From NCBI GenBank assembly GCA_051531975.1, contig JAOPTT010000016.1, positions 88,927 through 152,926 of the forward strand: 64,000 bases of DNA. The letters run 5' to 3'. Shown in pieces: positions 33,165 through 55,680 of this stretch; the stretch's first letter is position 1; each line of letters opens with the position of its first letter. This DNA comes from Spirochaetaceae bacterium. Its GTDB lineage: Bacteria; Spirochaetota; Spirochaetia; DSM-2461. A program made the translations under genes and the position numbers. The notes under the pieces were generated by a model. That model saw nothing but the letters and a program-made list of their open reading frames with translations, searched no databases and had not been told where the DNA came from.

Positions 33165-34154
33165 ATGAAGATATACAATTGGACATTTTTATTATTATCT
33201 TTAATATTAGTTATGTCATGTAGACCAAAAAACAAAAAAAATGATGAAGAAAACCAATTAGAAAACTCTAAAAAAGTAGTAATTGTACATTCTTACCATG
33301 ACAGTGTTGGTGGTGTTATCACAAAAAATGAAAGCCTTTTAGCTATATTAAATAGATATAATATTATATATGACATTATTTATTTGGATACCAGAAGAGT
33401 TACAGATGAAGATAAAAGACTAGAAATCTCAATTAATGCCTATAACAAAATATTAGAAATACAACCTGATTTGGTTATTACATTTGATGATAATGCTATG
33501 AAATACCTAGTAAAACCATATCTTAGAGATAGTGAAATACCTATAATTTTTGGTGGAATAGACTGGGACGCATCTGTATATGAACTTCCATATAAAAATA
33601 CCACAGGAATAGTCTCTGTGGATCTTATAGAACCATTAATTAAAAATCTTAAGTCCTTAAGCAGTGGAGATAAAGTTGCATGGTTAGGATATGAAGATTT
33701 GACTTCCAGAAAAACTATAAAAGCTTATAAAGATGTATTAGATCTTAATATTGACCACTATTATGTTATATCCAACTCAGAGTTTAAATCTCAATTTATT
33801 AATATCCAAAAAGAATACGATATAGTTCTATTAAGTGGGTCACTAACAAATATTGTGGATTGGGACATCTTATCCATAACAGAGTTTATTCATAATAATA
33901 TTAAAATCCCAACAGGTTCAGTAAACATAGAAGTATTTGACCTCTCATTAATATTAATTACTAAGAGCAAATATGAGTTAGGAAACTGGATTGGAAAAAC
34001 TGCAATAAAAATATTACAGGGTGCGCCTGTTTCGGATATAGATATAACACTCACCACAGAAGCAAATTTATATCTAAATTTTGAATTAGCAGAACTATTA
34101 GATCTCTCTTTCCCTTCAGAACTTATTAAAAACATGCAAGAACTGGAAAATTAA
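33165..34154 (+). CDS. Substrate-binding lipoprotein (ABC_sub_bind-like)
   Basis: Lipobox VMS-C; VHSYH, PDLVITFDDNA, PIIFGG, NTTG; no permease or ATPase nearby. Confidence 0.78.
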   Translation: MKIYNWTFLLLSLILVMSCRPKNKKNDEENQLENSKKVVIVHSYHDSVGGVITKNESLLAILNRYNIIYDIIYLDTRRVTDEDKRLEISINAYNKILEIQPDLVITFDDNAMKYLVKPYLRDSEIPIIFGGIDWDASVYELPYKNTTGIVSVDLIEPLIKNLKSLSSGDKVAWLGYEDLTSRKTIKAYKDVLDLNIDHYYVISNSEFKSQFINIQKEYDIVLLSGSLTNIVDWDILSITEFIHNNIKIPTGSVNIEVFDLSLILITKSKYELGNWIGKTAIKILQGAPVSDIDITLTTEANLYLNFELAELLDLSFPSELIKNMQELEN

Positions 34155-34250
34155 CTTAAGACATATTAAAAGTATATTATTACCATTATCAAAATAAAAA
34201 AAAAATTATATTTCTGCTGTTTATTGGGACATAATTTTATCAAAAAACAG

Positions 34251-34296
34251 TTATCAATTGACAAGTATTTATCGTTGTTATATTATCAATTGATAA
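34251..34296 (+). promoter_or_regulatory. Sigma70 promoter overlapped by two palindromic operators
   Basis: TTGACA (34258)-17 nt-TATTAT (34281); TTATCAATTGACAA at 34251-34264 and perfect palindrome TTATCAATTGATAA at 34283-34296. Confidence 0.8.
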
Positions 34297-34325
34297 GCAT
34301 AGATGAGAAGATTAAGGAAGTATTC

Positions 34326-35108
34326 ATGCGCACAGAACTATATTATTTTACAGGAACTGGGAATTCTCTATATTTAACAAAACAGATAGCAAATAAATTT
34401 GAGAATTCAAAGATAATTCCAATTACTAATCTAGATTTAACAAAAGATGTAATTTCATATGCAGAAAATATTGGAATCATTTTCCCAGTATATTGTCTTG
34501 ATATACCTGAGATTGTGAAACAATTTATGAAAGTTCTAAAAACTAACAATAATAGTTATATCTTTATATATTACAGTTATGGTGGTTCATCAGGAAATAC
34601 AGCTTTTAAATCATTTAAGATATTAAAAGATAATAATATAATACTTTCAAATTATTTTGGTGTAAAACTACCGGATAATAGCATTGTATATACTCCACCT
34701 AAAGAAAATATTAAGATTATATTTGATTCGGCATACAAAATTATTATTTCATCCATAGATAAAATTTGTGCTAAAGAAATCTCAAAAGCACCACCATATA
34801 ATTATTTAAACAATATTTCAGGTGCTCTACTAAAAATAGGTGTTTGGTATCTTGGATTTGATAGGATGTATATAATTCCAGATAAATGTACTAACTGTAA
34901 TTTATGCACCCGTATCTGCCCATTAAATAATATTGAGGAGAATGAATCTTTACCAATAATAAAGAAAAACTGTGAAATGTGTTTTGCATGTATTAATTTT
35001 TGTCCAAAAGAAGCTATTAGATATCATAGGATGAAAGATGATAATAATTTTCAATATAAAAATCCCCATGTTACATTTAGTGAAATCGAAAATATGAAGG
35101 TTTATTAA
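34326..35108 (+). CDS. EFR1-family flavodoxin-ferredoxin fusion
   Basis: YYFTGTGNS, FPVY flavodoxin part; CTNCNLCTRICP and CEMCFACINFCP; start moved to ATG 34326 after AAGGA. Confidence 0.9.
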   Translation: MRTELYYFTGTGNSLYLTKQIANKFENSKIIPITNLDLTKDVISYAENIGIIFPVYCLDIPEIVKQFMKVLKTNNNSYIFIYYSYGGSSGNTAFKSFKILKDNNIILSNYFGVKLPDNSIVYTPPKENIKIIFDSAYKIIISSIDKICAKEISKAPPYNYLNNISGALLKIGVWYLGFDRMYIIPDKCTNCNLCTRICPLNNIEENESLPIIKKNCEMCFACINFCPKEAIRYHRMKDDNNFQYKNPHVTFSEIENMKVY

Positions 35109-35266
35109 TCTTCTAGATAGTTTAAAAGAAATACATCAAAAAAAATAATAACGAAATTCAAAAAGATTTATATTACAATTAATTAAACAAAAAGTTTAAT
35201 AGTTACAAGAAACCTGTGAACTTAATTTAGCAAATTAACATAGAAATAAATTGTTAATATCGGAGG

Positions 35267-36940
35267 ATGTATATGAAACAATCAAAATATCAATTTGCAA
35301 TCCTGTTTATTGCTATTTTTGCTACATTGGGTATATTTCCCATATCCGTATATCTTTTTTCTAAATATTCAGATTATTTGCATAAAAGAGAAACTTATAT
35401 AGCTGTTCAAAGAGAGTTACAGGAGCAGTTAGTTAGAAGTATTAATTACAACCATCTAGAGATAATTAAAGATTTGGAATTCATAATATACTCCTCTAAT
35501 TTTCAGATGTATATAAATAGTGACATTATTACTAATCAACTTACAGATGATCTATTATTATTAAGTAGTTTGAATGGTAATTACGATCAGGTTAGGTATA
35601 TAGACATAAACGGGGATGAGAAGATCAGAATAAACTATAATAATGGTGAACCGGTTATAGTTCCTAAAGGTGAGCTTCAAAATAAAAAAGACAGATATTA
35701 TTTTAAAGATACTTTGTCCTTTAAGGAACCGACAATACTGATTTCAAAATTGGATTTAAATATAGAAAATGGAGAAATTGAGACTCCATATAAACCAATG
35801 TTAAGGTATTCTATACCAGTTTTTGATAATAAAGGTATAGTGAAAGGTGTATTAGTTTTAAATTATTATGCTGATGAATTAATTAACTCTTTAATAGAAG
35901 AGACTAAACTCCATGATAGCAATTTTATGATGTTAAATTCCGAAGGTTATTTTTTTCATGGTTTAAGTAATGACAAACTTTGGGGATTTATGTTTAAGGA
36001 TGGAAAAGAGAACAATATTATAAATATAGAAAGTCTACCGGATGATTTTGAAAATGAAATAAGTTATATAGATAATAATATTTATATTCAAAGGAAAATA
36101 AAATTAAATAAAGAAATATGTATTAAAAATAGTTACGGTATTAAATATTATCAAGTTCACCAAATGGATGATTTTTGGGTAATTATTAGCGAAGGGAAAA
36201 ATAAAGTTTACTTTAGTAATGATATTATATTTAAGATCTTTAGTTCTTTATGGCATGTCGAGGTATTATATCTTATTTTGTCTTTAATAACTTCTTATCT
36301 TTTAACATATTTAGTAAATAGGAATATTTCAATTAAAGACCAAAAAGAGACATTAAAACAGATAATGAATAAAGTTGTTAATGCTCTTGAAGCAACATCC
36401 TTATTAGACGATGACGATACGGGTTGCCATATAAAAAGAGTTTGTGAATATTCTTATATACTAGCAAAAAAATATGGACTTTCAGAGTCTGTTTCTAAAG
36501 AAATTAAAGAATTGGCATCACTGCATGATATAGGGAAGGTTGGTGTTCATGATAATATTCTCAAGAAACAGGGGAAGTTAAATAAAGATGAATGGGAGGA
36601 GATGAAAAGGCATGTTTTGTATGGAATGAAACTTGTAAGCAATCTTAACCTTAGTCCTGCAGCCCTAAATATAGTATTATATCATCATGAAAACTGGGAT
36701 GGTTCAGGTTATACCAATAATTTAATTGGAGAATCTATCCCTCTAGAAGCCCGTATAGTTGCTTTAGCCGATGTATATGATGCATTAAGAAATACCAGAA
36801 GTTATAAACCGGCATTTTCACATAGTAAATCAGTTGAAATAATTAAGTCAGAAAGTGGTACAAAGTTTGATCCTGAGATTGTTAATTTGTTTTTATTAAT
36901 TGCTGATAAATTTAATGAAATTTCTATCAGACTGAAATAA
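35267..36940 (+). CDS. Membrane Cache + HD-GYP cyclic-dinucleotide phosphodiesterase
   Basis: Two TMs, LQNKKDRYYF/SKLDLNIE Cache pattern, TGCHIKRV, LHDIGK, HHENWDGSGYT, ADVYDAL. Confidence 0.9.
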   Translation: MYMKQSKYQFAILFIAIFATLGIFPISVYLFSKYSDYLHKRETYIAVQRELQEQLVRSINYNHLEIIKDLEFIIYSSNFQMYINSDIITNQLTDDLLLLSSLNGNYDQVRYIDINGDEKIRINYNNGEPVIVPKGELQNKKDRYYFKDTLSFKEPTILISKLDLNIENGEIETPYKPMLRYSIPVFDNKGIVKGVLVLNYYADELINSLIEETKLHDSNFMMLNSEGYFFHGLSNDKLWGFMFKDGKENNIINIESLPDDFENEISYIDNNIYIQRKIKLNKEICIKNSYGIKYYQVHQMDDFWVIISEGKNKVYFSNDIIFKIFSSLWHVEVLYLILSLITSYLLTYLVNRNISIKDQKETLKQIMNKVVNALEATSLLDDDDTGCHIKRVCEYSYILAKKYGLSESVSKEIKELASLHDIGKVGVHDNILKKQGKLNKDEWEEMKRHVLYGMKLVSNLNLSPAALNIVLYHHENWDGSGYTNNLIGESIPLEARIVALADVYDALRNTRSYKPAFSHSKSVEIIKSESGTKFDPEIVNLFLLIADKFNEISIRLK

Positions 36941-37867: not shown

Positions 37868-37904
37868 ACTAGTTTAATGACTATTGTTATGTTAAAATTA
37901 GATC

Positions 37905-40900
37905 ATGGTTCGACGATCAATATTAATCATATTAGCCCTTATTTCCACAACAGCATTTTCTGGCTCTCTAGAAGATGGAACAGAACTATTTAACAGTGGT
38001 ACAGCATTTTATCAAAATGGTGATTATAAATCTGCATATGAAACTTTAAAAGAAAGTATAACTCAATTCAAAATGGTAGAAAATGAGGTCGCTGATGAGT
38101 GGCTTCTAAATTCATTTCTCTGGTCTGGAGCAGCAGCATATAATCTGGGGTACTTTGATGAGTCGGAAAGTTATTATCTAAAATCTTTAAAACTAGCGGA
38201 ATACCATGAAAGTATTCAGTATCAGTCAAATATTGTAACTGCACTGGCTAACTTGAAATTTAGTTTAGCTGAATATTCAGAGGCAGGTAATTGGTATATT
38301 AAATCTTCGAAACTGTTAAAAACATTAGATTCAATTCCTGAATCTACCTGGGCATTAGAATATGGTGGATATAGCAAAGTTCTAGCTAAAGAATACAGTT
38401 TGGCCTATGAAATATATGAAGAAATTATAGAAAATTACTCATCTAGTAAACAGGATAATGAAATAGCTAATTTATATTCTATGTCAGGTAACTGCCTCTA
38501 TTATATGATGGATTTAGAAGGTGCTTTAAGTTATTACCAACATGCGACTTCACTATTAGAACAGTATGGGTCCTCAATACCACTTTCACAATTTTATGGG
38601 TGGCTTGGTAAAATATATTTTGATTCATCAGAAAATGAAAATGCATTAAGGTATTTTAAACAATCCTTAAACATGGCTAAAGAACTAAACAGTCAAGAAG
38701 ATGAATCGAGAATACTTGGATATTTAGGTTTTTTATATGCTAGTATTGGTGAATATACAAATGGAGTAAATTATTATAAAAAGTCACTTGAAGTTGCAAT
38801 AAATATCGGACAAGCTCAGTTTATAGTTGCAGCATATGAAAGTCTTGCCTGGATATACGGTTTAAGCAAAGATGAAGATGAAATAATAGAGATTAAAAAG
38901 AGACTAATAGAACTATTTAAACAGACTAATGATGAACCAAAACTAGTACAAAATTTTAATGATTTAGGTTATATCTTTTATGAGAGAGAATTATATAAAG
39001 AATCAATACCACTCTTTGAAAGTTCTGTGAATCTATTAAGAAAAGCACCTGATAATGAAACGCTAAAAACAGTTCTAATTAACTTAGGAATGTCATATGA
39101 AAAAATAGGAAATAAGGCACTTTCAGAGAAATATCTAAATGAAAGTTTATCAATAAGTTTAAATGAAGGAGATACTTCTGGGGCTGAAGATATTCTAGGT
39201 CACTTCAATCTGATTTATTCAAATGATTCTGACTATTATAGTTTAATAGATTCGCTAAAAAGGTTTATCCCAATTTACAAATTGGAAAAGGACTATAAAA
39301 AACTTCTACATGTAACAAATAACATTGGTGTTGCATATTATGAAATAGACGAATATAACAAAGCTATTAAATATTATACTGATGCAAAAATACTTGCGAC
39401 CCAGTTAGAGGATTATGAAGAACTGAGTATCTCTTTGCACAATATTGCTCAGTCAAAAGCTAAACTTGCACTATTTGACGAAGCGTTAGAAATAAATGAA
39501 CAAGCCTTGGATATTGCAACAAAACATGGCTTATTAGATATAGAAGCTAATCTGTGGAACAGTCTTGGTGAACTTTATAGAGCCTGGGGTTGGTATGAAA
39601 AAAGTTTAACTTGTTACAATAATGCTTTTGTAATATTTGAACAAGAAAATAACATAGAAGGTATAGCGACTATAAATAATAATATAGGTCAAGCTCTTAG
39701 GGGTAGTGGACAAGCCCAGGCTTCAATCCCTTATTATATAGATGCCCTAGAATTAAGTATAAAAGTTAACGATAAAAAATTACAGGCAATAACACTTAGT
39801 AATTTAGGTGAAGCCTATAGAGATAATAATGAAAATGATAAGGCTATGGAATATTATTCTAAGGCTTTACAAACTGATATTGAAATTAAAAATCTAGAAG
39901 GTATTCATATAAGAAAAAATAATATAGCTCTTCTAGATCTTATTTCTGGGGATTACATAAAAGCACGGGATACTTTTGAGGTCGGTCTTAAATACTGGCA
40001 AAAAATAGGAGATAGGCGGGAAGAGTCTATAGCTTTAAAAAACCTATGGGCAGTTAATTTTCAAATGGATAAATATGAAACTGCAGCAGAATATTTAGTA
40101 GAAGTTGTAAGAATACAGGAACAATTAAGATTAACTGCTAAAGGAGCAATACGAAGAGAGTATCTTGATTCGCAGATAGAATCCTATAGAGATCTTGCAG
40201 CTACATATTATTACATGAAAGACCCTTTAAACGCTTTATATTTTATGGAACTCTCTAGGGGTAAATATCTTCTTGAACAGATGAATATAACTAATGATAG
40301 TGTCTATGATTGGAGTACATATACAGATTTTATTCAAAATATGAAACAAGGATCAGCACTTTTAACTTATTCAGTAACTGATAAAAATTTAATTCAGGCT
40401 ATTTCAATAGAAAATGACAGGGTTTCAACGACTCTAATAAATATTGAAGAGCAGTTTCTAGATTCTATTTATGATGATTTTGGTTCTCTAATTAATAGAT
40501 ACGTAGATGGATCTACAAATAACCAATTTGAAACTATTCTTAAGTTCTACCGTATTTTACTTTCCCGTCCTATTCAGTCCAGATCTACAACTAAAGCTAT
40601 TAATGATATCGGAGGATATCTATATTCAAAATTAATTACTCCATTCCATGATAATCTTAAAGGTATAAATCAGTTAATTATTGTCCCTGATGGTATTCTT
40701 GGAACTATCCCATTTGAAGTTTTAACCGATGAAAATAGTAAATATTTAATAGAAAGATATGATATAAGTTATTCACAATCTTTAGTTATTTCTCAGATAA
40801 TAAATAATAGAGAATACAAAGAAGATCGAAATCCCATGCTTGCATTTGGTGGAGCTATTTATGAAGATAATATTAATGTTGTTAGTTCAGATAAAATAGT

Positions 40901-41573
40901 TGATCGTCAGGAAATATTAGAAATGATACGTTCAGGCCGGGATACTAGAAAGGCATATAATGGTATGGGGCTTGGATCTTGGCAAGACCTACCAGGAACA
41001 TTGGAAGAGGTTAAAAAACTTTCTGAAATAGTTCCAAAATCAAAAATAATAACGGGTGCAGATGTAACAGAAGAGACAGTTTTTAATATATCAAATTCTG
41101 GGGATCTTGCTAACTATAAAGTTATACACTTCGCAACACATGGTATTGTTGTACCTGAGATTCCAGAGTTATCAGCTGTCGTTTTATCCCAGACTTCTAA
41201 TAATAGCGGTGAAAATGATGGTTATTTAACAATGAGTGAAATTGCATCACTTAAAATAAAGGCAGATTTTGTAAATTTATCCGCTTGTGAAACAGGTCTT
41301 GGTAAAATATACCAAGGTGAAGGTGTTGTTGGTTTAACCCAAGCTTTTTTAATTGCTGGAGCCAATGCATTATCAGTTTCTCTTTGGCAAGTATCTGATG
41401 AATCGACTATGAAGTTCATGACAGGGGTATATACTTTAGTAGAAGAACAAGGTTTCAGTTATTCGGGGGCAATTTCTGAAATGAAAAGGGTCTTTCTAAA
41501 AGACGATTTGTATAAAAACCCATTTTATTGGGCACCATTTGTATTGTATGGTGATTATGAGGCAGGATTATGA
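37905..41573 (+). CDS. Exported TPR-repeat CHAT-domain (caspase-like, clan CD) protease
   Basis: Signal peptide ending AFS; about 750 aa of TPRs; IVPDG..PFE, LPGT..E, HFATHG (His), LSACETG (Cys), SLWQVSD, PFYWAPF. Confidence 0.93.
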   Translation: MVRRSILIILALISTTAFSGSLEDGTELFNSGTAFYQNGDYKSAYETLKESITQFKMVENEVADEWLLNSFLWSGAAAYNLGYFDESESYYLKSLKLAEYHESIQYQSNIVTALANLKFSLAEYSEAGNWYIKSSKLLKTLDSIPESTWALEYGGYSKVLAKEYSLAYEIYEEIIENYSSSKQDNEIANLYSMSGNCLYYMMDLEGALSYYQHATSLLEQYGSSIPLSQFYGWLGKIYFDSSENENALRYFKQSLNMAKELNSQEDESRILGYLGFLYASIGEYTNGVNYYKKSLEVAINIGQAQFIVAAYESLAWIYGLSKDEDEIIEIKKRLIELFKQTNDEPKLVQNFNDLGYIFYERELYKESIPLFESSVNLLRKAPDNETLKTVLINLGMSYEKIGNKALSEKYLNESLSISLNEGDTSGAEDILGHFNLIYSNDSDYYSLIDSLKRFIPIYKLEKDYKKLLHVTNNIGVAYYEIDEYNKAIKYYTDAKILATQLEDYEELSISLHNIAQSKAKLALFDEALEINEQALDIATKHGLLDIEANLWNSLGELYRAWGWYEKSLTCYNNAFVIFEQENNIEGIATINNNIGQALRGSGQAQASIPYYIDALELSIKVNDKKLQAITLSNLGEAYRDNNENDKAMEYYSKALQTDIEIKNLEGIHIRKNNIALLDLISGDYIKARDTFEVGLKYWQKIGDRREESIALKNLWAVNFQMDKYETAAEYLVEVVRIQEQLRLTAKGAIRREYLDSQIESYRDLAATYYYMKDPLNALYFMELSRGKYLLEQMNITNDSVYDWSTYTDFIQNMKQGSALLTYSVTDKNLIQAISIENDRVSTTLINIEEQFLDSIYDDFGSLINRYVDGSTNNQFETILKFYRILLSRPIQSRSTTKAINDIGGYLYSKLITPFHDNLKGINQLIIVPDGILGTIPFEVLTDENSKYLIERYDISYSQSLVISQIINNREYKEDRNPMLAFGGAIYEDNINVVSSDKIVDRQEILEMIRSGRDTRKAYNGMGLGSWQDLPGTLEEVKKLSEIVPKSKIITGADVTEETVFNISNSGDLANYKVIHFATHGIVVPEIPELSAVVLSQTSNNSGENDGYLTMSEIASLKIKADFVNLSACETGLGKIYQGEGVVGLTQAFLIAGANALSVSLWQVSDESTMKFMTGVYTLVEEQGFSYSGAISEMKRVFLKDDLYKNPFYWAPFVLYGDYEAGL

Positions 41574-43372
41574 AAAAATCACGTTTATGGATATCTTCAT
41601 TCATTATTATCTTAGTTGTTTTTATTTCAGTTCTAAACTTTCCACTTTCAGGTATTTTAGAATTAAACACTCAAACCTTAAGAGCTAAAACCTTAGGGTA
41701 TAATGAGGTCACTGCACCAATAGTTATTTTAGCTATAGACGACGCTTCATTTGAGAAAATTAACATTAGGTGGCCTTGGCCTAGACAGATTCTTGCAGAA
41801 GCTATAATCAAATTGAAAGATGATGGAGCAAAAGTAATCGGTCTTGATATTATGTTAGGAGAATCTGGTTATACATTAGAAGAAGATGAAGCTTTAACTA
41901 ACGCAATAAAATATGCAGGTAATGTTGTTTTACCTTCTAAAAGAGATGAGAGGAAGTCGTCAGGCTATGTTATTGAATATTTTGATGAACCTATATCTTA
42001 TTTCAGTGATAATGCCGTGACATCTGGTTATGTAAATCTCCTACTTGATAAAGATAAATATATCCGTCGATTATTACCTATAGATAGTTCTCTAGGTGAA
42101 ACAAAACATAGTTTTTCGTTTAGCATTATAGAAACTTATGAAGGTCGTAATATCTCCACAAGTACTGGGAATATCAATATAGGAAAACATAAAATACCAA
42201 CTGCCCATGATAATAGCTTCTTAATTAATTATGCCGATGTTGGTGGTTTCCCTGTAATTCCTTTTTATGAGCTTCTTGAAGGAAATATAAAAAAGGATAT
42301 ATTTAAGGATAAAATCGTACTTATAGGTGCATATTTTAAAGATTCTCACGATCAATTTTTAACTGTATCGGAAGATTTATCTGGTATATATGGTGTAGAA
42401 ATACATGCCAATAGTATCAATACTGTTTTTTCTGGAAACTTTCTTACAGATAATTCTAGAAGTGTAGAACTGCTTATAATACTTCTATTAACTATAATTG
42501 GGTCATTTTTGTTTCTGAGACTAAAGCCACTAAAAGGTTTACTGTTTTTAGGGATTATAATCACTGTTTATCTAATTTTAGCTTCATACTTATATCTGAA
42601 TAGAGGACTTATATTAGAAGTCTTTGATCCCATATTGGCTATTTCACTTACATGGTTATGTTCAGTTTTATATAACTATTTAATAGTTGAAAAAGAAAAA
42701 AAATATGTTAGAAATACATTTTCTAGGTTTGTATCTGCTGAAGTTGTTAATAATATTCTTGATAGTGAAAATGAGATAGAACTTGGTGGAGAGTTAAGAG
42801 ATGTTGCTATATTTTTCTCTGATATATGTGGATTTACCTCAATTTCTGAAAATATGAAACCATCACAAATTGTTGAGATGTTGAATGAATATTTTACTGA
42901 GATGACGGATATAATATTCAAATACGATGGTACATTAAATAAGTATATTGGTGATGCAATTATGGCTATATTTGGTGCTCCTATTCAATCTGATAATAAC
43001 TCTGAAAGAGCTGTTAGAGTAAGTCTTGAAATGAGAACGCAGCTGAACCTGTTAAATGAAAAAAGAATCATAGAAGGGAAAGCACCTATAAAAATTGGTA
43101 TGGGACTTCATAAAGGAAAGGTTCTTGTTGGTAATATAGGTTCTACAAGACAAATGGAATATACTGTAATTGGAGATGCTGTTAATGTATGTTCTAGAAT
43201 AGAGGGGTTAACCCGTATTTTTGATACGGATCTTCTAATTAGTGACGATTTATATAGGGAAGTTAAAGATCTTGTTAATATTACAACTTGTGAACCAATT
43301 GATGTAAAGGGTAAAAGTGAGAAAATCCTAGTACATAAAGTTATAAGCCTAAAAGGAGATTATAATGAATAA
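41570..43372 (+). CDS. CHASE2-domain membrane adenylate cyclase (class III)
   Basis: AIDD, WPWPR, D...RR, GVEIHA CHASE2 motifs; three TMs; FSDICGFT, KYIGD, YTVIGDAVN..SR; ATGA overlap with the CHAT gene. Confidence 0.93.
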   Translation: MKKSRLWISSFIIILVVFISVLNFPLSGILELNTQTLRAKTLGYNEVTAPIVILAIDDASFEKINIRWPWPRQILAEAIIKLKDDGAKVIGLDIMLGESGYTLEEDEALTNAIKYAGNVVLPSKRDERKSSGYVIEYFDEPISYFSDNAVTSGYVNLLLDKDKYIRRLLPIDSSLGETKHSFSFSIIETYEGRNISTSTGNINIGKHKIPTAHDNSFLINYADVGGFPVIPFYELLEGNIKKDIFKDKIVLIGAYFKDSHDQFLTVSEDLSGIYGVEIHANSINTVFSGNFLTDNSRSVELLIILLLTIIGSFLFLRLKPLKGLLFLGIIITVYLILASYLYLNRGLILEVFDPILAISLTWLCSVLYNYLIVEKEKKYVRNTFSRFVSAEVVNNILDSENEIELGGELRDVAIFFSDICGFTSISENMKPSQIVEMLNEYFTEMTDIIFKYDGTLNKYIGDAIMAIFGAPIQSDNNSERAVRVSLEMRTQLNLLNEKRIIEGKAPIKIGMGLHKGKVLVGNIGSTRQMEYTVIGDAVNVCSRIEGLTRIFDTDLLISDDLYREVKDLVNITTCEPIDVKGKSEKILVHKVISLKGDYNE

Positions 43373-44057
43373 TAAAATACGATATATAATAACATTTACA
43401 GTTTTAACGGTTTTAATTCCAACTTTTTTATATGCAAATGACGCAATTATACTTGAAAAAAGTGGGGTTGTGAGTATTCAAGACTCAGTAGAATTTTATG
43501 AGGCAGAGATTGGAACTAGTCTAAATTTTGGTGATATTATTTCAACAGGGAAAGCCAGTTCTGCTATAGTTATATTATCAGATGGTACCCGTATTGATCT
43601 CTTTTCAAGTAGTAAATTTGTTTTAACAGAACTAAATAACAGTAATAATAACAAAGTAACTGGAATTGGCAAATTGTGGAATAAGATTAAAAATAAATTT
43701 TCTGATGTAGAATATTCAAATGCTCAGGCTGGAAGTGTTGGAGCTATTAGAGGGTCTATTACTGATGAAGTAATTTTTAATGATGAAATGTCTGAAGATC
43801 AAAATATAGAACTATTAAAAACGATAGATTCAATTACAAATGAGTCCATACTAGATGAAACAAAATGGCAGCTAAAAGCTATTATCTTTGAGGAATATGG
43901 ACAATTTATAGAGGCTGAAAAAATCTACTTACAACAAATCGAGTCAAATCCTACTGATCTTCTTATATATGATATGTTAATAGATCTATACTTTAAAGTT
44001 GATTTTTATGCCCATGCTTCAGAAATTATTAAGTTAAAAGAAAAATATAAAATATGA
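43365..44057 (+). CDS. Exported FecR-like domain protein with C-terminal TPR-like helices
   Basis: Signal peptide ending LYA; GDIISTG..S.A...LSDGT.I and VGAIRG; 8-nt overlap with the cyclase; AGGAG RBS. Confidence 0.75.
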   Translation: MNNKIRYIITFTVLTVLIPTFLYANDAIILEKSGVVSIQDSVEFYEAEIGTSLNFGDIISTGKASSAIVILSDGTRIDLFSSSKFVLTELNNSNNNKVTGIGKLWNKIKNKFSDVEYSNAQAGSVGAIRGSITDEVIFNDEMSEDQNIELLKTIDSITNESILDETKWQLKAIIFEEYGQFIEAEKIYLQQIESNPTDLLIYDMLIDLYFKVDFYAHASEIIKLKEKYKI

Positions 44058-45430: not shown

Positions 45431-46204
45431 ATGGGTAGTAAAGGAATAAAAGTTTTTGTCATGAGTAGAGTAAACAAAATTGGACTAATATGTCTATTAA
45501 ATATAATTGTTATATCAGACGCATATTCTGAAAATAACCAAACCATACATATAAGTAGTGAAGTAAAATTAAATTCTATTTCAGATAATGTATGGATTTA
45601 TATCTCAGATATAAAACTAGAAAAATGGGGTAAAGTATCGGCAAATGGTATGGCCATTATTACTAATAACCAACTGGTATTAATAGATACCCCATGGAAT
45701 GATGAACAAACCAAATTATTGATTTTATGGTTTACAAATAATTATGATATTACTGAAATAAAAGTAATTGTTAGCCATTATCATGTTGATAATCTCGGTG
45801 GATTAAACTGGATTCATCAAAATGGAATAGAGTCATATTCTATTGGTAAAACACAAGAGATTTGTAAAAATAAAAATCTTTCTATACCAATAAATACTTT
45901 AAGTAATCCTTACATATTCGATTTTAGCGATACTATAATTGAAGTACATTTCCTAGGTGAGGGGCACACTGTTGATAGTGCTAGTGTATACCTGCCAAAT
46001 GAGAAAATACTATTTGCAGGTTGCTCTGTTAAATCACTTAAAAATAGTACTCTCGGAAATGTAGCTGATGCTAATTTAAAGAATTGGCCGGTGACCCTAC
46101 AAAATATGATGAGTTCATTTCCTGATGCTAAAATAATAATACCTGGACATGGGCTAGAAGGTTCTATGTCTTTAATAGATCACACACTTTCATTATTTAA
46201 TTAG
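45431..46204 (+). CDS. Subclass B1 metallo-beta-lactamase
   Basis: ANG, IDTPW, HYHVD (HxHxD), GHTVD, GCSVK, LGN, PGHG; signal-like N-terminus; true start may be ATG 45461. Confidence 0.88.
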   Translation: MGSKGIKVFVMSRVNKIGLICLLNIIVISDAYSENNQTIHISSEVKLNSISDNVWIYISDIKLEKWGKVSANGMAIITNNQLVLIDTPWNDEQTKLLILWFTNNYDITEIKVIVSHYHVDNLGGLNWIHQNGIESYSIGKTQEICKNKNLSIPINTLSNPYIFDFSDTIIEVHFLGEGHTVDSASVYLPNEKILFAGCSVKSLKNSTLGNVADANLKNWPVTLQNMMSSFPDAKIIIPGHGLEGSMSLIDHTLSLFN

Positions 46205-51681: not shown

Positions 51682-54600
51682 ATGAAATTAATAAAAAGCA
51701 TTATACTTATTTTATTTAGTCTATTTATAATTGGTGAACTATTTGCAGAAGATAAAGAGTACTCTGTTACAATATTAGAGAAAAATGTTGAATTCTATTA
51801 CGAAGAAAACAATCTACAAAAATATACATTTCAGCAAAAGTATTTAATAAATAATCAAAAAGGTGCTGAATCATGGAATTATACATCCAGTAGTTGGAGT
51901 CCATGGTATCAAGAAAAACCAGTTATAACAGCCACAGTTACTAACCCTGATGGCCAAGTTTATGTATTAGATCAATCTACTTTAGTTGAAGTTGGAACAG
52001 AAGAAGATAATGATATATACAGTGATACTAAAAAATTAAAAGCACCTCTAGCATCTATTAAAATTGGTAGTATTGTTGACGAGAAAGTAGTTAAAGTAAT
52101 GACAAAACCATACTTTAGTGGTGGTTATGATACTAGTTATTCATTTTTTAATAGTAAACCAATAAATAAAAATACAATAACAATCAATGTTCCCAAAGAT
52201 ATAGATATTATATTTAAAGAATTTATGATGGATTTTAATCCTAAAATTGAGATTAAAAATAACAGAAAAATATATACCATTTCTTTAGAAGACTTAGAAG
52301 CGTTAGACTCAAAACCTCTGCTTGTGGGAAGTGATTATAGACATTGGCCAAAACTGTATTGGACAACATCAAATAGTTGGAATAGTGTTGTAAAAGAGTA
52401 TCAAAAGTTAATAACTCCACAACTAGTAATGGATAATAATGTAGAGAGCTTTTTAAAAAACGTTGATCTTACTGGAACAAAAGAAGAGATTATAATAAAT
52501 ATTTTAATGCATTTACATGAAGAAGTTAGATATACAGGATTAGAACTAGGAGAATCATCAATAGTTCCCCATACACCAAACGAAACAATAGAGAGAAAAT
52601 ATGGAGATTGCAAAGATAAAGCTGTTCTTTTACAATCAATACTTAAAGAAGTTGGTATAAAATCAAATATAGCCCTTCTTAAAGCTGGATATGGACCAGA
52701 TGTTCCCACAGAAATTCCTGGTATTCGTCATTTTAATCATGCCATTGTATATCTTCCAAAACCATTTGATATATGGATAGATGCAACTTCTGAATTCTCC
52801 AGATTAGGAGAGCTTCCAGTATCTAGTTCTAATAGAAATGCCTTAGTTATAGACGATAAAACTACAACATTAAAAAAGACAACTTCTAAAAAAGAAAAAG
52901 ACAATACAAGAATACTTACCCACAATGTCTACATGAACCAGTTAGGAGAAGCTAAGGTTGTAGAGAAGCTTGAGGTTTCTGGTTTTTTTGGTAGGGACAG
53001 AAGAAGCTATTTTAATAGTTTATCCCCAAAAGAGACTGATGAAAAAATTGGTAATTATGTAGAAAGAACATATAACTCGGAAGAATTTGTTAATTTTAAC
53101 AAACTTAATAGTAGAGATATAAAAGATAATTTCTTTTATGAATTTACAGTTCCAGAGACAAATTATGCTTATACAGATACAGATAGTGCTTACATCTACC
53201 TAAATTTAGTTGATGTTTTTAACATACTTCCTAAATCCTTAAAGAGTATGAACCAATACGAAAAAAATAACGGTGAAAAAGAGGACTCCCAGTGGTTTGA
53301 AAGGACTCAAGATGTTTATTTAGATTACCCATTTATTAATAATCATAACTATATAATTCATTTTCCAGAAGGTTTTGTTATTAACGAACTTCCTAAGGAC
53401 GAAGAACATCTTTTTGGTACAACTAAATATAGTAGAACTTTTAAGCAGGATGAAAATAAAATCATAATTAATTCTCAACTTAATACTGGTAGTGCTAAAT
53501 ATAATCCAGAAGAGTTAGAAAAACTTCGTACATATCTCTTTAAAAATAATAATGAGAAAAATCAAAAAATCATAGCTACATCTTTTAAAAACTTATATAT
53601 AAATAATGATGAATTCCAGAACTGTATAAATTATTATTTAGATAAAATCGAGAGTGAACCTAACGACATCAGTCACCATGTTAGAATAGCAGCAGCTTAT
53701 ATCGAAGCTGGATTTGCCAAAGCTGGTAATAAACATTTAAAGATTGCTCTTACCCTAGATGAAGATAATACCGAGGCTAAAATGGCCTATGCCCTTTCAT
53801 TTTTATACGATGAGTGGGGAAGATATGAATATTTAAAAGATAACAAGACAAAAGCTACAAAAGAGTATCTAGAAGTTACACAGATTAATCCTGAAATTGG
53901 AAATGCCTGGAGAAACTTAGCCATTATTTCAGAGTATGGAGATGAAGGTTTTAGGTATAGCAGTGGGGCTGATTTTGAAGGCGCTATAAATTATTATAAC
54001 AAATATACTGAATACACTAAAGAAGATGATTTAAATTATAATATTTTATTAGACTTAGTAAAACTTAATAAATTTGATGAACTACTAAATAATGTTGAAT
54101 TAGTTAAAAAATTAAATACCTATGATGGATGGAGTCTCTATTTTACAGCTATAGTATTAAAAAATGGTGATGAAATAGCATATAAACAGATATCATCCTT
54201 AACTAGTTCTCCTGATAATAGAAAAAGGTTAATAGATTCAACTGTAACTAATTTGCAACAACTTAGAGAGTATAAATTAGCAGCTAAAATGTTATCTTAT
54301 ATTGATAAATCTACAGATAAATATATTGAAATTGAGAATAAAATAGATTTTCTAAACTCACTTTCTCATTATGAAGATGAGGTTTTTGATGAGAGTAGGC
54401 CAGAAAATGTAGTTCAGAAATACTGGTTCAAGGCTTTTGTTAAAGAAGATCTTTCATCGAAAGATGTAGGAGAAATATTTGCAAAAAAACTTATAGAGAA
54501 TGTGGGTACAAAACATCTCTTAGAAGAAATGACTGATGCAAAAGATGAATTTGAATTCAACTCACTTAATGCTAGTTCCAACTTAAATGTTATGAGGGAC

Positions 54601-55680
54601 ATGCTTTTAACAGAGATTAATTATAATGTTGAACAAGCTGGAGATTTATACCGTATTATTACCACAGTTAATCTTCCAACTGAACAAATATCACAACAAT
54701 TTTTTGTCTGGAAAGAGGACGGAAAATTTAAACTAATACACAATCAAGATCCTTGGTTAGCTAGTGATTCTATTACTAAAATGTTAAAAAGTGGTAAAAG
54801 AATCGAAGCAATAAAAATTCTTAACTGGATAAAAGACGGAGCTGATAATCGTAACTTTTCATCAATATTATCTAGTGTATGGAAATCTAATAAAAGAAGT
54901 GACGATTGGATTAACATGGGAGTTGCATCTTTAACTTATAAACTAAAAGAGAGTACGAACTTCTTATTAGGGGTAGAACAGGCTTTTATTAAAAATGGTC
55001 TTAGAGATATATATACATGGATGCTTGCAATCCACTATAAAGAGAAAAAAGAGTATAAAAAGGCATATGATCTTATTAAGAAACATATAGCTAATGAAGG
55101 TTTATCCACCGAAGTAGTTGGAGATTATTTTTATATATATCATAAAAATGACAAACATGAAGAGTTCCATAAAATATTAATGGAATCACTGGAGTTTGAA
55201 CCAAATAATCTAATACTTCACGACCAAGTTGTTTATAACTATGTTATACAGAAAAGATATACTGAAGCATTTGATTATCTAGAATCCTACATAGAAAACA
55301 GTAGTGAAAGTGCTTTTATGTATAATAACATAGCTTGGCATGGTCTATTTAGTGATCAGGATTTTGAACAGTTACATTCATACGCTTTAACAGCAAATCA
55401 AATAACTAAATTTGAAAAAAATGCTTTCCTAGATACTCTAGCTGTAATATTAGCAGAGTCTGGAAAGGTAAAACAATCTAGAGAAATTTTATTACACCTT
55501 ATTGGGCAGAAAAAAAGTAAACATCTTGATGGTGAATATTATATTATGGGATTAAATGCAGTAACTTTAGGACTTAATGATGAGGCTATTAACTATTTTA
55601 GTCAGGTTAAAAAACCAGAAATTGAAAGTGGTATATCAACCTATTTATTAGCTCAGAAAAAGTTAAAAGAATTAAAATAA
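51682..55680 (+). CDS. Exported DUF3857 / transglutaminase-like / TPR protein
   Basis: Signal peptide ending LFA; VRYTG, GDCKDKA (Cys), FNHAI (His), WIDAT (Asp); long TPR-like C-terminal half ending NNIAW...DTLA. Confidence 0.88.
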   Translation: MKLIKSIILILFSLFIIGELFAEDKEYSVTILEKNVEFYYEENNLQKYTFQQKYLINNQKGAESWNYTSSSWSPWYQEKPVITATVTNPDGQVYVLDQSTLVEVGTEEDNDIYSDTKKLKAPLASIKIGSIVDEKVVKVMTKPYFSGGYDTSYSFFNSKPINKNTITINVPKDIDIIFKEFMMDFNPKIEIKNNRKIYTISLEDLEALDSKPLLVGSDYRHWPKLYWTTSNSWNSVVKEYQKLITPQLVMDNNVESFLKNVDLTGTKEEIIINILMHLHEEVRYTGLELGESSIVPHTPNETIERKYGDCKDKAVLLQSILKEVGIKSNIALLKAGYGPDVPTEIPGIRHFNHAIVYLPKPFDIWIDATSEFSRLGELPVSSSNRNALVIDDKTTTLKKTTSKKEKDNTRILTHNVYMNQLGEAKVVEKLEVSGFFGRDRRSYFNSLSPKETDEKIGNYVERTYNSEEFVNFNKLNSRDIKDNFFYEFTVPETNYAYTDTDSAYIYLNLVDVFNILPKSLKSMNQYEKNNGEKEDSQWFERTQDVYLDYPFINNHNYIIHFPEGFVINELPKDEEHLFGTTKYSRTFKQDENKIIINSQLNTGSAKYNPEELEKLRTYLFKNNNEKNQKIIATSFKNLYINNDEFQNCINYYLDKIESEPNDISHHVRIAAAYIEAGFAKAGNKHLKIALTLDEDNTEAKMAYALSFLYDEWGRYEYLKDNKTKATKEYLEVTQINPEIGNAWRNLAIISEYGDEGFRYSSGADFEGAINYYNKYTEYTKEDDLNYNILLDLVKLNKFDELLNNVELVKKLNTYDGWSLYFTAIVLKNGDEIAYKQISSLTSSPDNRKRLIDSTVTNLQQLREYKLAAKMLSYIDKSTDKYIEIENKIDFLNSLSHYEDEVFDESRPENVVQKYWFKAFVKEDLSSKDVGEIFAKKLIENVGTKHLLEEMTDAKDEFEFNSLNASSNLNVMRDMLLTEINYNVEQAGDLYRIITTVNLPTEQISQQFFVWKEDGKFKLIHNQDPWLASDSITKMLKSGKRIEAIKILNWIKDGADNRNFSSILSSVWKSNKRSDDWINMGVASLTYKLKESTNFLLGVEQAFIKNGLRDIYTWMLAIHYKEKKEYKKAYDLIKKHIANEGLSTEVVGDYFYIYHKNDKHEEFHKILMESLEFEPNNLILHDQVVYNYVIQKRYTEAFDYLESYIENSSESAFMYNNIAWHGLFSDQDFEQLHSYALTANQITKFEKNAFLDTLAVILAESGKVKQSREILLHLIGQKKSKHLDGEYYIMGLNAVTLGLNDEAINYFSQVKKPEIESGISTYLLAQKKLKELK

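Follow-up and report, generated by a model that had tools for sequence, protein, structure and literature searches.

What might an exported caspase-fold protease cut when its gene is translationally coupled to those of a membrane-bound adenylate cyclase and a small exported protein? The question is raised by positions 37905 to 44057 of a 64,000-nucleotide stretch (hereafter the window) of contig JAOPTT010000016.1 from the Spirochaetaceae bacterium assembly GCA_051531975.1, where three genes follow each other on the forward strand. Gene 1 (37905..41573) encodes a predicted exported TPR-CHAT cysteine protease of caspase fold (1222 amino acids; Pfam, genome search and AlphaFold), gene 2 (41570..43372) an inner-membrane CHASE2 class III adenylate cyclase (600 amino acids; Pfam, hydropathy and alignment) and gene 3 (43365..44057) a predicted exported MtxA-like partner (230 amino acids; AlphaFold, Foldseek and hhalign). 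Both junctions, an ATGA overlap at 41570-41573 and an 8-nt overlap at 43365-43372, are read directly in the DNA, as an earlier sequence-only reading had stated. That reading had the CHAT protease cleave either the third protein or the CHASE2 domain; our comparison across genomes points to the third protein, at Arg129, as the likely substrate within what is a real, conserved and uncharacterised module.

The partner begins with a hydrophobic stretch that resembles a signal peptide by hydropathy, and its AlphaFold model (pLDDT, the per-residue confidence measure, 88.6) comprises a signal helix, then a small beta domain (residues 27-86) and a further helix (100-122), which a linker of lower confidence joins to TPR-like helices (144-229). 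The beta domain looks like a truncated one of FecR/DUF7354 type: the Pfam FecR match (E 0.0077, 17.1 bits against a 24-bit cut-off) spans residues 58-99 and profile positions 2-44 of 97, no full PF04773 domain above cut-off is found, and the protein reads R-G-S where FecR proteins carry their Gly-Thr self-cleavage motif. Foldseek with the model returns 5ix9 and then MtxA (4z29, E 5e-4), and hhalign joins the window's partner family, over residues 1-118, to a bona fide MtxA encoded beside a CHASE2 gene at locus L276 (probability 73.6, E 2.9e-5; the latter protein matches Pfam DUF7354, MtxA_IG-like and MtxA_C, and 4z29 at E 9e-44). DUF7354 matches 8 of 52 partner relatives and leaves the window protein unmatched, FecR at E 0.01 likewise matches 8 of the 52, and the MtxA_IG-like domain is absent from both the model and the Pfam matches of gene 3; the C-terminal TPR-like helices and the adjoining CHASE2 cyclase gene are traits of the MtxA cluster that the window does display. 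Gene 3 is a truncated MtxA-like partner, not a full FecR protein, so that of the earlier description, a FecR-like domain ending in AIRGS followed by TPR-like helices, the motif, the helices and the hydrophobic N-terminus stand and the FecR domain does not. Atlas look-alikes of the partner are unnamed clusters at 0.90-0.94, to be taken as leads only.

The linker carries the motif V125-G-A-I-R129-G130 (43737..43754), in a block (residues 121-130, pLDDT 66) that follows the helix, and the proposed cut falls after R129 (codon 43749-43751). We aligned 60 partner relatives whose matches spanned most of the profile, having dropped TPR-only and N-terminal-only ones from the 150 matches listed. Arg129, within a V-x-small-[VIL]-R consensus, is kept in 59 of these 60, and no other residue is conserved as well in this family, whose mean column identity is 23%; the residue after it is Gly in 44/60, R-G-T occurs in 1/60 and RG[TSC] in 4/60. 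As a control we took 18 ordinary FecR-like proteins out of the same sample of genomes, and 17 of them keep R-G-T followed by further strands. In FecR proteins the Gly-Thr bond cleaves itself (PMC8144685, PMC12036975; here and below, papers are cited for those portions of their text that our search covered), and the partner motif appears to sit at this very position (V-R-G↓T, the arrow marking a known or proposed cut). The partner has shed the self-cleaving Thr and the later strands and has kept the Arg; with the remainder of the fold gone and the Arg retained in an exposed linker, the segment looks like a substrate of an Arg-specific protease. Two further observations accord with this. Trypsin removed the N-terminal part of MtxA in its linker region (PMC4439547), the equivalent of the linker discussed here; and among CHAT-fold enzymes, Arg precedes the cut both for HetF, which cleaves PatU3 at R117↓S118, and for separase (PMC9457339, PMC11506125).

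Gene 1 supplies a candidate enzyme. Besides TPRs, it carries a CHAT domain (40611..41555, residues 903-1217; Pfam E 5e-61, 207 bits against a cut-off of 24) whose catalytic dyad is intact, as had been noted from the sequence: H1079 (41139-41141) lies in an HFATHG motif that begins at residue 1075 and C1128 (41286-41288) in an LSACETG motif that begins at 1125. Across an alignment of 41 rows the His is kept in 38, the Cys in 37 and D1165 (41397-41399) in all. The signal peptide (about residues 1-19, 37905..37961) is predicted from hydropathy only, as is the lack of any transmembrane-like segment beyond this N-terminal stretch, and 45 of 51 complete open reading frames (ORFs) of CHAT relatives have a comparable hydrophobic N-terminus. 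The AlphaFold model of residues 735-1222 (pLDDT 88) has structural matches to Csx29, separase and DdvA (8rot, E 5e-11), and gene 1 is on this model a CHAT/clan CD protease of caspase-haemoglobinase fold with predicted activity. PDB sequence searches with the CHAT domain gave nothing significant, for which reason the Arg-binding D2151 of separase has no assigned counterpart on gene 1. The view that the characterised CHAT proteases act inside the cell overlooked DdvA, a periplasmic TPR-CHAT protein (PMC11506125). A GAIR-like stretch within the CHAT protein itself (around residue 747) is not conserved, with 26-28 of the 41 rows gapped, and was dropped. We also noticed an exported, conserved TPR-CHAT clade without the His and Cys motifs (L104-L111), whose genes keep fixed neighbours, among them one that is DnaJ-like, as judged by its N-terminal sequence.

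The cyclase is in turn complete. Pfam finds CHASE2 (41612..42502, E 2.5e-45) and Guanylate_cyc (E 3e-26), the catalytic domain running from 42797 to 43321 by Pfam and alignment, and hydropathy predicts one transmembrane segment, a periplasmic CHASE2 domain, about three further transmembrane segments and the cyclase domain. The metal ligands D418/D462, K458/T532 and the transition-state residues N539/R543 are all present and kept in 89-105 of 105 aligned cyclases, which bears out the sequence-only reading. In class III cyclases, residues of the K458/T532 type specify adenine, and with this combination of topology and metal, adenine and transition-state residues gene 2 has the make-up of a CHASE2 class III adenylate cyclase. 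On the sensor side, D57, R72, D93, D106, D160, D162, R166, D261 and E277 are each kept in 103-105 of 105 aligned relatives; these seven near-invariant acidic residues and two Arg are compatible with a pocket for an Arg-ending peptide and also with metal binding. The signals of CHASE2 domains are described as unknown (PMC5192318), a PDB sequence search with CHASE2 found no solved relative, and its Atlas look-alikes all score below 0.9. Complex predictions of CHASE2 (28-298) with partner residues 24-129 scored 0.29 and 0.15 against a mark of 0.32, and with the controls unfolded we weighed them neither way.

Does the trio exist outside this genome? A CHAT-domain search yielded 16 loci, of which three hold the full trio in the same order and likewise translationally coupled (L007, L009 and L014, with identities of 41-58%, 50-64% and 36-49% for the three proteins), two carry CHAT and CHASE2 and stop at a contig edge, and 11 have no adjoining partner. 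CHAT matches occur in 170 genomes of a 301-genome phylum sample; among 20 regions hand-picked around strong matches, four from one genus show CHAT, partner and CHASE2 in another order (L060/63/64/66), five show CHAT and partner only, and 11 neither, while the genomes of those five hold CHASE2 genes elsewhere. A further 18 CHAT regions gave no partner beside CHAT (0/18). Of 80 metagenome loci that the cyclase brought up, 31 have a CHASE2 ORF; the trio appears at one locus, in a third arrangement (L123), and one 3.3-kb contig carries cyclase and partner. The genes are hence conserved together in three orders, and the expectation that output domains would be exchanged is borne out by the cyclase, histidine kinase and LytTR domains found beside CHASE2. 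The trio is a real and recurrent, but minority, setting for exported CHAT proteins.

A wider comparison starting from CHASE2, which is found in 230 of the 301 spirochaete-phylum genomes searched, shows that both the protease and the partner are exchanged. We inspected 40 loci of this phylum, hand-picked for diversity from 150 listed of 507 matches. Sixteen code for an exported SH3 protein in which [RK]G precedes F, L, W or M, and 15 of the sixteen have an M48 peptidase within 3.5 kb; in four the product is a FecR protein reading [RK]G↓T. Locus L223 pairs a window-type partner with a C14 caspase where the window has CHAT, an arrangement that recurs at L270 and L274, and at one more locus, which lacks a protease, a partner-like gene carries Lys. 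Among 20 loci of a second phylum, two combine a caspase, a partner (R↓D) and CHASE2 with kinase or LytTR output, one has SH3 with M48, three a partner only, and five a caspase or CHAT-like gene nearby with no readable motif. Cyanobacterial plasmid loci carry DUF928 proteins with a small-rich R↓G/A/S motif in 6/7 cases (two read by eye) and an annotated CHAT gene in 5/7. A similar small-small-x-[R/K] motif is found in partners that are unrelated to one another (SH3, DUF928, FecR/NsrA); Gly is fixed in the M48 and FecR versions, and in the caspase-fold versions it is Arg that does not vary, a mostly small residue following it, which is what the P1 and P1' positions of a cleaved bond would call for. 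CHAT is encoded once and CHASE2 five times in the genome of the window, and all five CHASE2 genes adjoin a motif-bearing exported protein: one of CHAT type, one of M48/SH3 type, two of FecR type (G↓T) and one truncated protein of 154 amino acids, with TASTR↓A at the end of its linker. Genome-wide the pattern occurs in 7 of 408 exported-like small ORFs, 3 of the 7 beside CHASE2 genes, a count to be read as suggestive, since the pattern was written post hoc and the loci are related.

Several of these loci deserve mention in their own right. The M48/SH3-type set of this genome (G000:C15:37931-41428, L003) consists of coupled genes for an SH3 protein (LAGKG↓F), an M48 peptidase and a CHASE2 cyclase; such sets make up 15 of the 40 spirochaete loci, sometimes with SH3 and M48 fused (L016, L211, L231), and no literature on them was found. 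The 154-residue protein (G000:C13:217992-218456), exported, truncated and FecR-like with an acidic tail, is encoded divergently from a CHASE2 cyclase gene with no protease adjoining, and may be a second substrate. At L223 (8571-10247), the exported C14 caspase has AGVTR↓G soon after its catalytic Cys, similar to the partner motif and a possible self-processing site. A Calothrix plasmid (L254:5758-13301) carries CHAT, DUF928 and an output-less CHASE2 protein with a TIR-domain gene adjoining; in further CHASE2 proteins of cyanobacteria, CHAT forms the N-terminal domain (L279) or the neighbour is AAA-like or TIR. In the Bacteroidota, a Chondrinema plasmid (L257:3007-8035) encodes an exported CHAT protein, an ECF (extracytoplasmic function) sigma factor and a membrane protein with IISR↓G before a TPR, possibly a sigma-output version of the same cut.

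We propose, at somewhat short of an even chance, that the trio acts as a periplasmic relay in which a CHAT cut after R129 exposes an end of the partner that in turn switches the cyclase. By hydropathy, the three gene products would meet in the periplasm, where some cue would activate CHAT; Craspase and DdvA suggest by analogy that this cue is probably a protein, which the long TPR array would read. The protease would then cut the MtxA-like partner after Arg129 in its exposed linker, and the freed N-terminal piece, ending in ...V-G-A-I-R, would act on CHASE2 and switch synthesis of cyclic AMP (cAMP), itself to be read by some of the cyclic nucleotide (cNMP)-binding domains of the genome, of which there are 24 matches, 21 above cut-off. 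Together with 13 C14 caspase-domain matches, these 24 are many for a 5.5-Mb bacterium.

The exchange of partners allows a broader formulation. Unrelated partner folds and three chemistries have come to resemble each other in the residues before a cut while CHASE2 stays constant, which is most simply explained if CHASE2 reads the exposed end. CHASE2 beside such partners could be a receptor for a proteolytically exposed end (small-small-x-R/K, with or without Gly) that is made in three unrelated ways, a generalization we regard as doubtful but worth stating: Arg-specific caspase-fold proteases (CHAT or C14) would cut MtxA-like or DUF928 partners, M48 metalloproteases would cut SH3 partners at G↓hydrophobic, and FecR-type proteins such as NsrA would cleave themselves at G↓T with subsequent release. 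In the M48 and FecR versions, a cut after the fixed Gly would yield the same ...R/K-G end. M48-type metalloproteases prefer a hydrophobic P1' residue, and the cut position proposed for them rests on this preference.

A number of observations weigh against the relay. CHAT specificity varies, Craspases cutting after Met or Leu, and the 13 genomic C14 caspases could also cut the partner. The search profile contained the motif, so that the figure of 59/60 for Arg overstates independence; the motif is short, the pattern was composed after the motif had been seen, and three cases rest on reading by eye. Since D1165 does not vary even among CHAT copies without the dyad, it may be structural, while the R-G-S of the window copy leaves some room for Ser-based self-cleavage. 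Most exported CHAT proteins lack these neighbours (11/16, 11/20 and 18/18), CHAT and partner occur with no CHASE2 gene in the stretch fetched in 5/20 regions, and neither partner nor protease is present at 18/40 spirochaete and 9/20 second-phylum CHASE2 loci. A neighbourhood test starting from the partner, made in the genome sample, gave 12 full-length matches, 10 of which were training sequences, and both of the others have no CHAT gene in the 12 kb fetched. Finally, under standard conditions a deletion of mtxA was without phenotype (PMC4439547).

The gene coupling and the Arg site would also be expected if the intact partner bound CHASE2 and held the cyclase off, the cut at R129 destroying a brake instead of releasing a ligand. 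HetF acts by removing PatU3 (PMC9457339), FecR signalling is triggered by dissociation of the two self-cleaved halves (PMC12036975), and CHASE2-less CyaD1 makes cAMP constitutively (PMC5498481), which suggests that CHASE2 restrains the cyclase; such de-repression, which leaves the convergence of unrelated partner folds on the residues upstream of the cut unexplained, we judge unlikely. Alternatively, the partner may stay whole, its Arg motif serving for docking or as a pseudo-substrate within a stable complex in the periplasm, be it as a securin-like CHAT inhibitor or as a ligand that CHASE2 binds constitutively. This would account for the MtxA-type and other partners at loci that have no adjoining protease (L276, L277, L278, L208, L102, L103) and for the loss of the dyad in the L104-L111 clade; however, the trio CHATs with complete ORFs retain both catalytic residues, all five genomes checked among those protease-less loci (5/5) have a CHAT or C14 caspase match elsewhere, and the small residue after Arg fits a cleavable bond, as in HetF R↓S. 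An uncleaved complex is in our view somewhat less likely still.

Other explanations loosen the tie between the protease and the cyclase or change its purpose. CHAT and partner may be the unit proper, with the cyclase an interchangeable or loosely linked output, or CHAT may cut CHASE2 directly. The 5/20 regions with no adjoining CHASE2 and the sigma-factor neighbourhood of the Chondrinema plasmid, with its IISR↓G and TPRs, favour a separate CHAT-partner unit, but translational coupling here and at L007/L009/L014 and the CHASE2 genes elsewhere in those five genomes speak against it, and in the CHASE2 alignment we noticed no linker with an Arg motif; we consider either version improbable. Least of all do we expect anti-phage defence, with envelope sensing and a cAMP alarm, for which the chances appear slight. 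DdvA, the one studied periplasmic TPR-CHAT protein, controls a CBASS-CRISPR island (PMC11506125), and a TIR gene adjoins CHASE2 at one cyanobacterial locus; on the other hand, PADLOC reported only a generic resemblance to TPR proteins and to a class III cyclase (PycC), and 10 neighbouring proteins gave no match, the unit contains no effector, its GC content (0.307 against 0.315 for the genome) is ordinary for the host, and NsrA-CyaK, the one characterised CHASE2 cyclase pathway, conveys a host signal (PMC7529298). The earlier suggestion of a defence system accordingly finds no support.

How much of this is new? The sequence-only reading had put the system forward as a candidate for an undescribed one, a label that does not fit the partner-cyclase pair: in the uncharacterised mtx cluster of magnetotactic bacteria, MtxA (MGR_0208, PDB 4Z29) precedes a CHASE2 adenylate cyclase in M. 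gryphiswaldense (PMC4439547). The mtx cluster shares with the window an exported partner with N-terminal beta domain, helix, Arg linker (TTVRR↓S in 4z29) and TPR-like helices, and a CHASE2 cyclase, but MtxA has an Ig-like domain, which the window partner lacks along with any MtxA Pfam match, and the searchable text of PMC4439547 names neither a protease nor a cleavage model. In Sinorhizobium meliloti, NsrA, an exported FecR-domain/TPR protein that carries AAAIRG↓T in its FecR domain, is required together with the CHASE2 cyclase CyaK for a protein signal (PMC7529298; also PMC13001267, PMC5498481); unlike the window partner, it has an outer-membrane barrel, a full FecR domain and an intact Gly-Thr, its locus is without a protease, and no cleavage model is given in the covered portions of these three papers. 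Exported FecR-domain proteins also pair with CHASE2 sensors in Campylobacterota (PMC9239204) and in Burkholderia BiofilmReg (PMC5192318), with no CHAT or caspase and no mechanism in the text at hand, and two further papers, as far as their text is covered, only mention CHASE2 with DUF928 or with a caspase fusion (PMC5587647, PMC8195603). From the FecR/FoxR self-cleaving anti-sigma factors (PMC8144685, PMC12036975), which share a related N-terminal beta domain and a motif at the Gly↓Thr site, the window partner differs in having no anti-sigma domain or membrane anchor, in missing the second FecR half and in the loss of Thr.

On the protease side, Myxococcus xanthus DdvA is likewise a periplasmic TPR-CHAT protein proposed to signal by proteolysis (PMC11506125), but DdvA is an anti-sigma factor of the membrane that is proposed to cut itself and has a sigma output, whereas the window has a soluble protease, a separate candidate substrate and cAMP output. 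HetF with PatU3 and separase (family C50, clan CD) share the CHAT fold and the His-Cys dyad and cut after Arg before a small residue, their catalytic domains and substrates being cytoplasmic (PMC9457339). By analogy, the sensor side of the trio may work as in the mtx cluster and NsrA-CyaK, and its protease side as in DdvA and HetF. We found no paper linking CHASE2 to cleavage of a partner by CHAT, caspase or M48 proteases in a literature that mostly omits subscription journals, nor any that connects the caspase-fold, M48 and self-cleaving CHASE2 modules or gives a mechanism for the pair. Two specific identities were set aside: Pycsar, given the adenine-type K458/T532 and no PADLOC match for the 10 neighbours, and a DdvA-type anti-sigma factor, which would have a cytoplasmic zinc anti-sigma domain, a transmembrane helix and a cognate ECF sigma factor, given that gene 1 has only a signal-peptide-like N-terminus and its neighbours are not sigma factors. 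An NCBIfam search reached no equivalog.

As to the genomic setting, a possible extended -10 element, TG-n-TAAAAT (37890..37898, forward strand, read by eye), lies 6 nt before the ATG of gene 1 and would make a leaderless transcript beginning at that gene possible. Homologue loci L007 and L008 read TTGACA-17 nt-TAAGCT-6 nt-ATG, in a position matching the window element, and this leaderless-type geometry, clearer in the two homologues, suggests that the trio is a unit of its own and supports its start codon. A generic promoter and terminator scan does not list the element and is at chance level, with no excess of promoters (42 against 46.6 in shuffles). Upstream of the trio (33165-36940) lie genes for an ABC substrate-binding-like lipoprotein and a Cache-sensor HD-domain phosphodiesterase-like protein; downstream, beyond an AraC gene and a small membrane protein, the window encodes an exported metallo-beta-lactamase-fold protein (45431-46204; Pfam Lactamase_B, HYHVD motif), and further on an exported DUF3857/transglutaminase-like/TPR protein of 1332 amino acids (51682-55680).

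For an exported CHAT protease, the comparison yields a candidate substrate and a candidate bond within it; it further yields a concrete candidate ligand for CHASE2 in the Arg-ending segment of the partner, and a testable account of how NsrA and CyaK may talk to each other, along with possible roles for MtxA and DUF928. With CHASE2 so common a sensor in the spirochaete phylum, this candidate ligand matters beyond the trio of one genome. Were the broader proposal true, it would describe a widespread bacterial counterpart of protease-activated receptor signalling that feeds cyclases and kinases, and this one genome would carry all three versions by which the end is generated.

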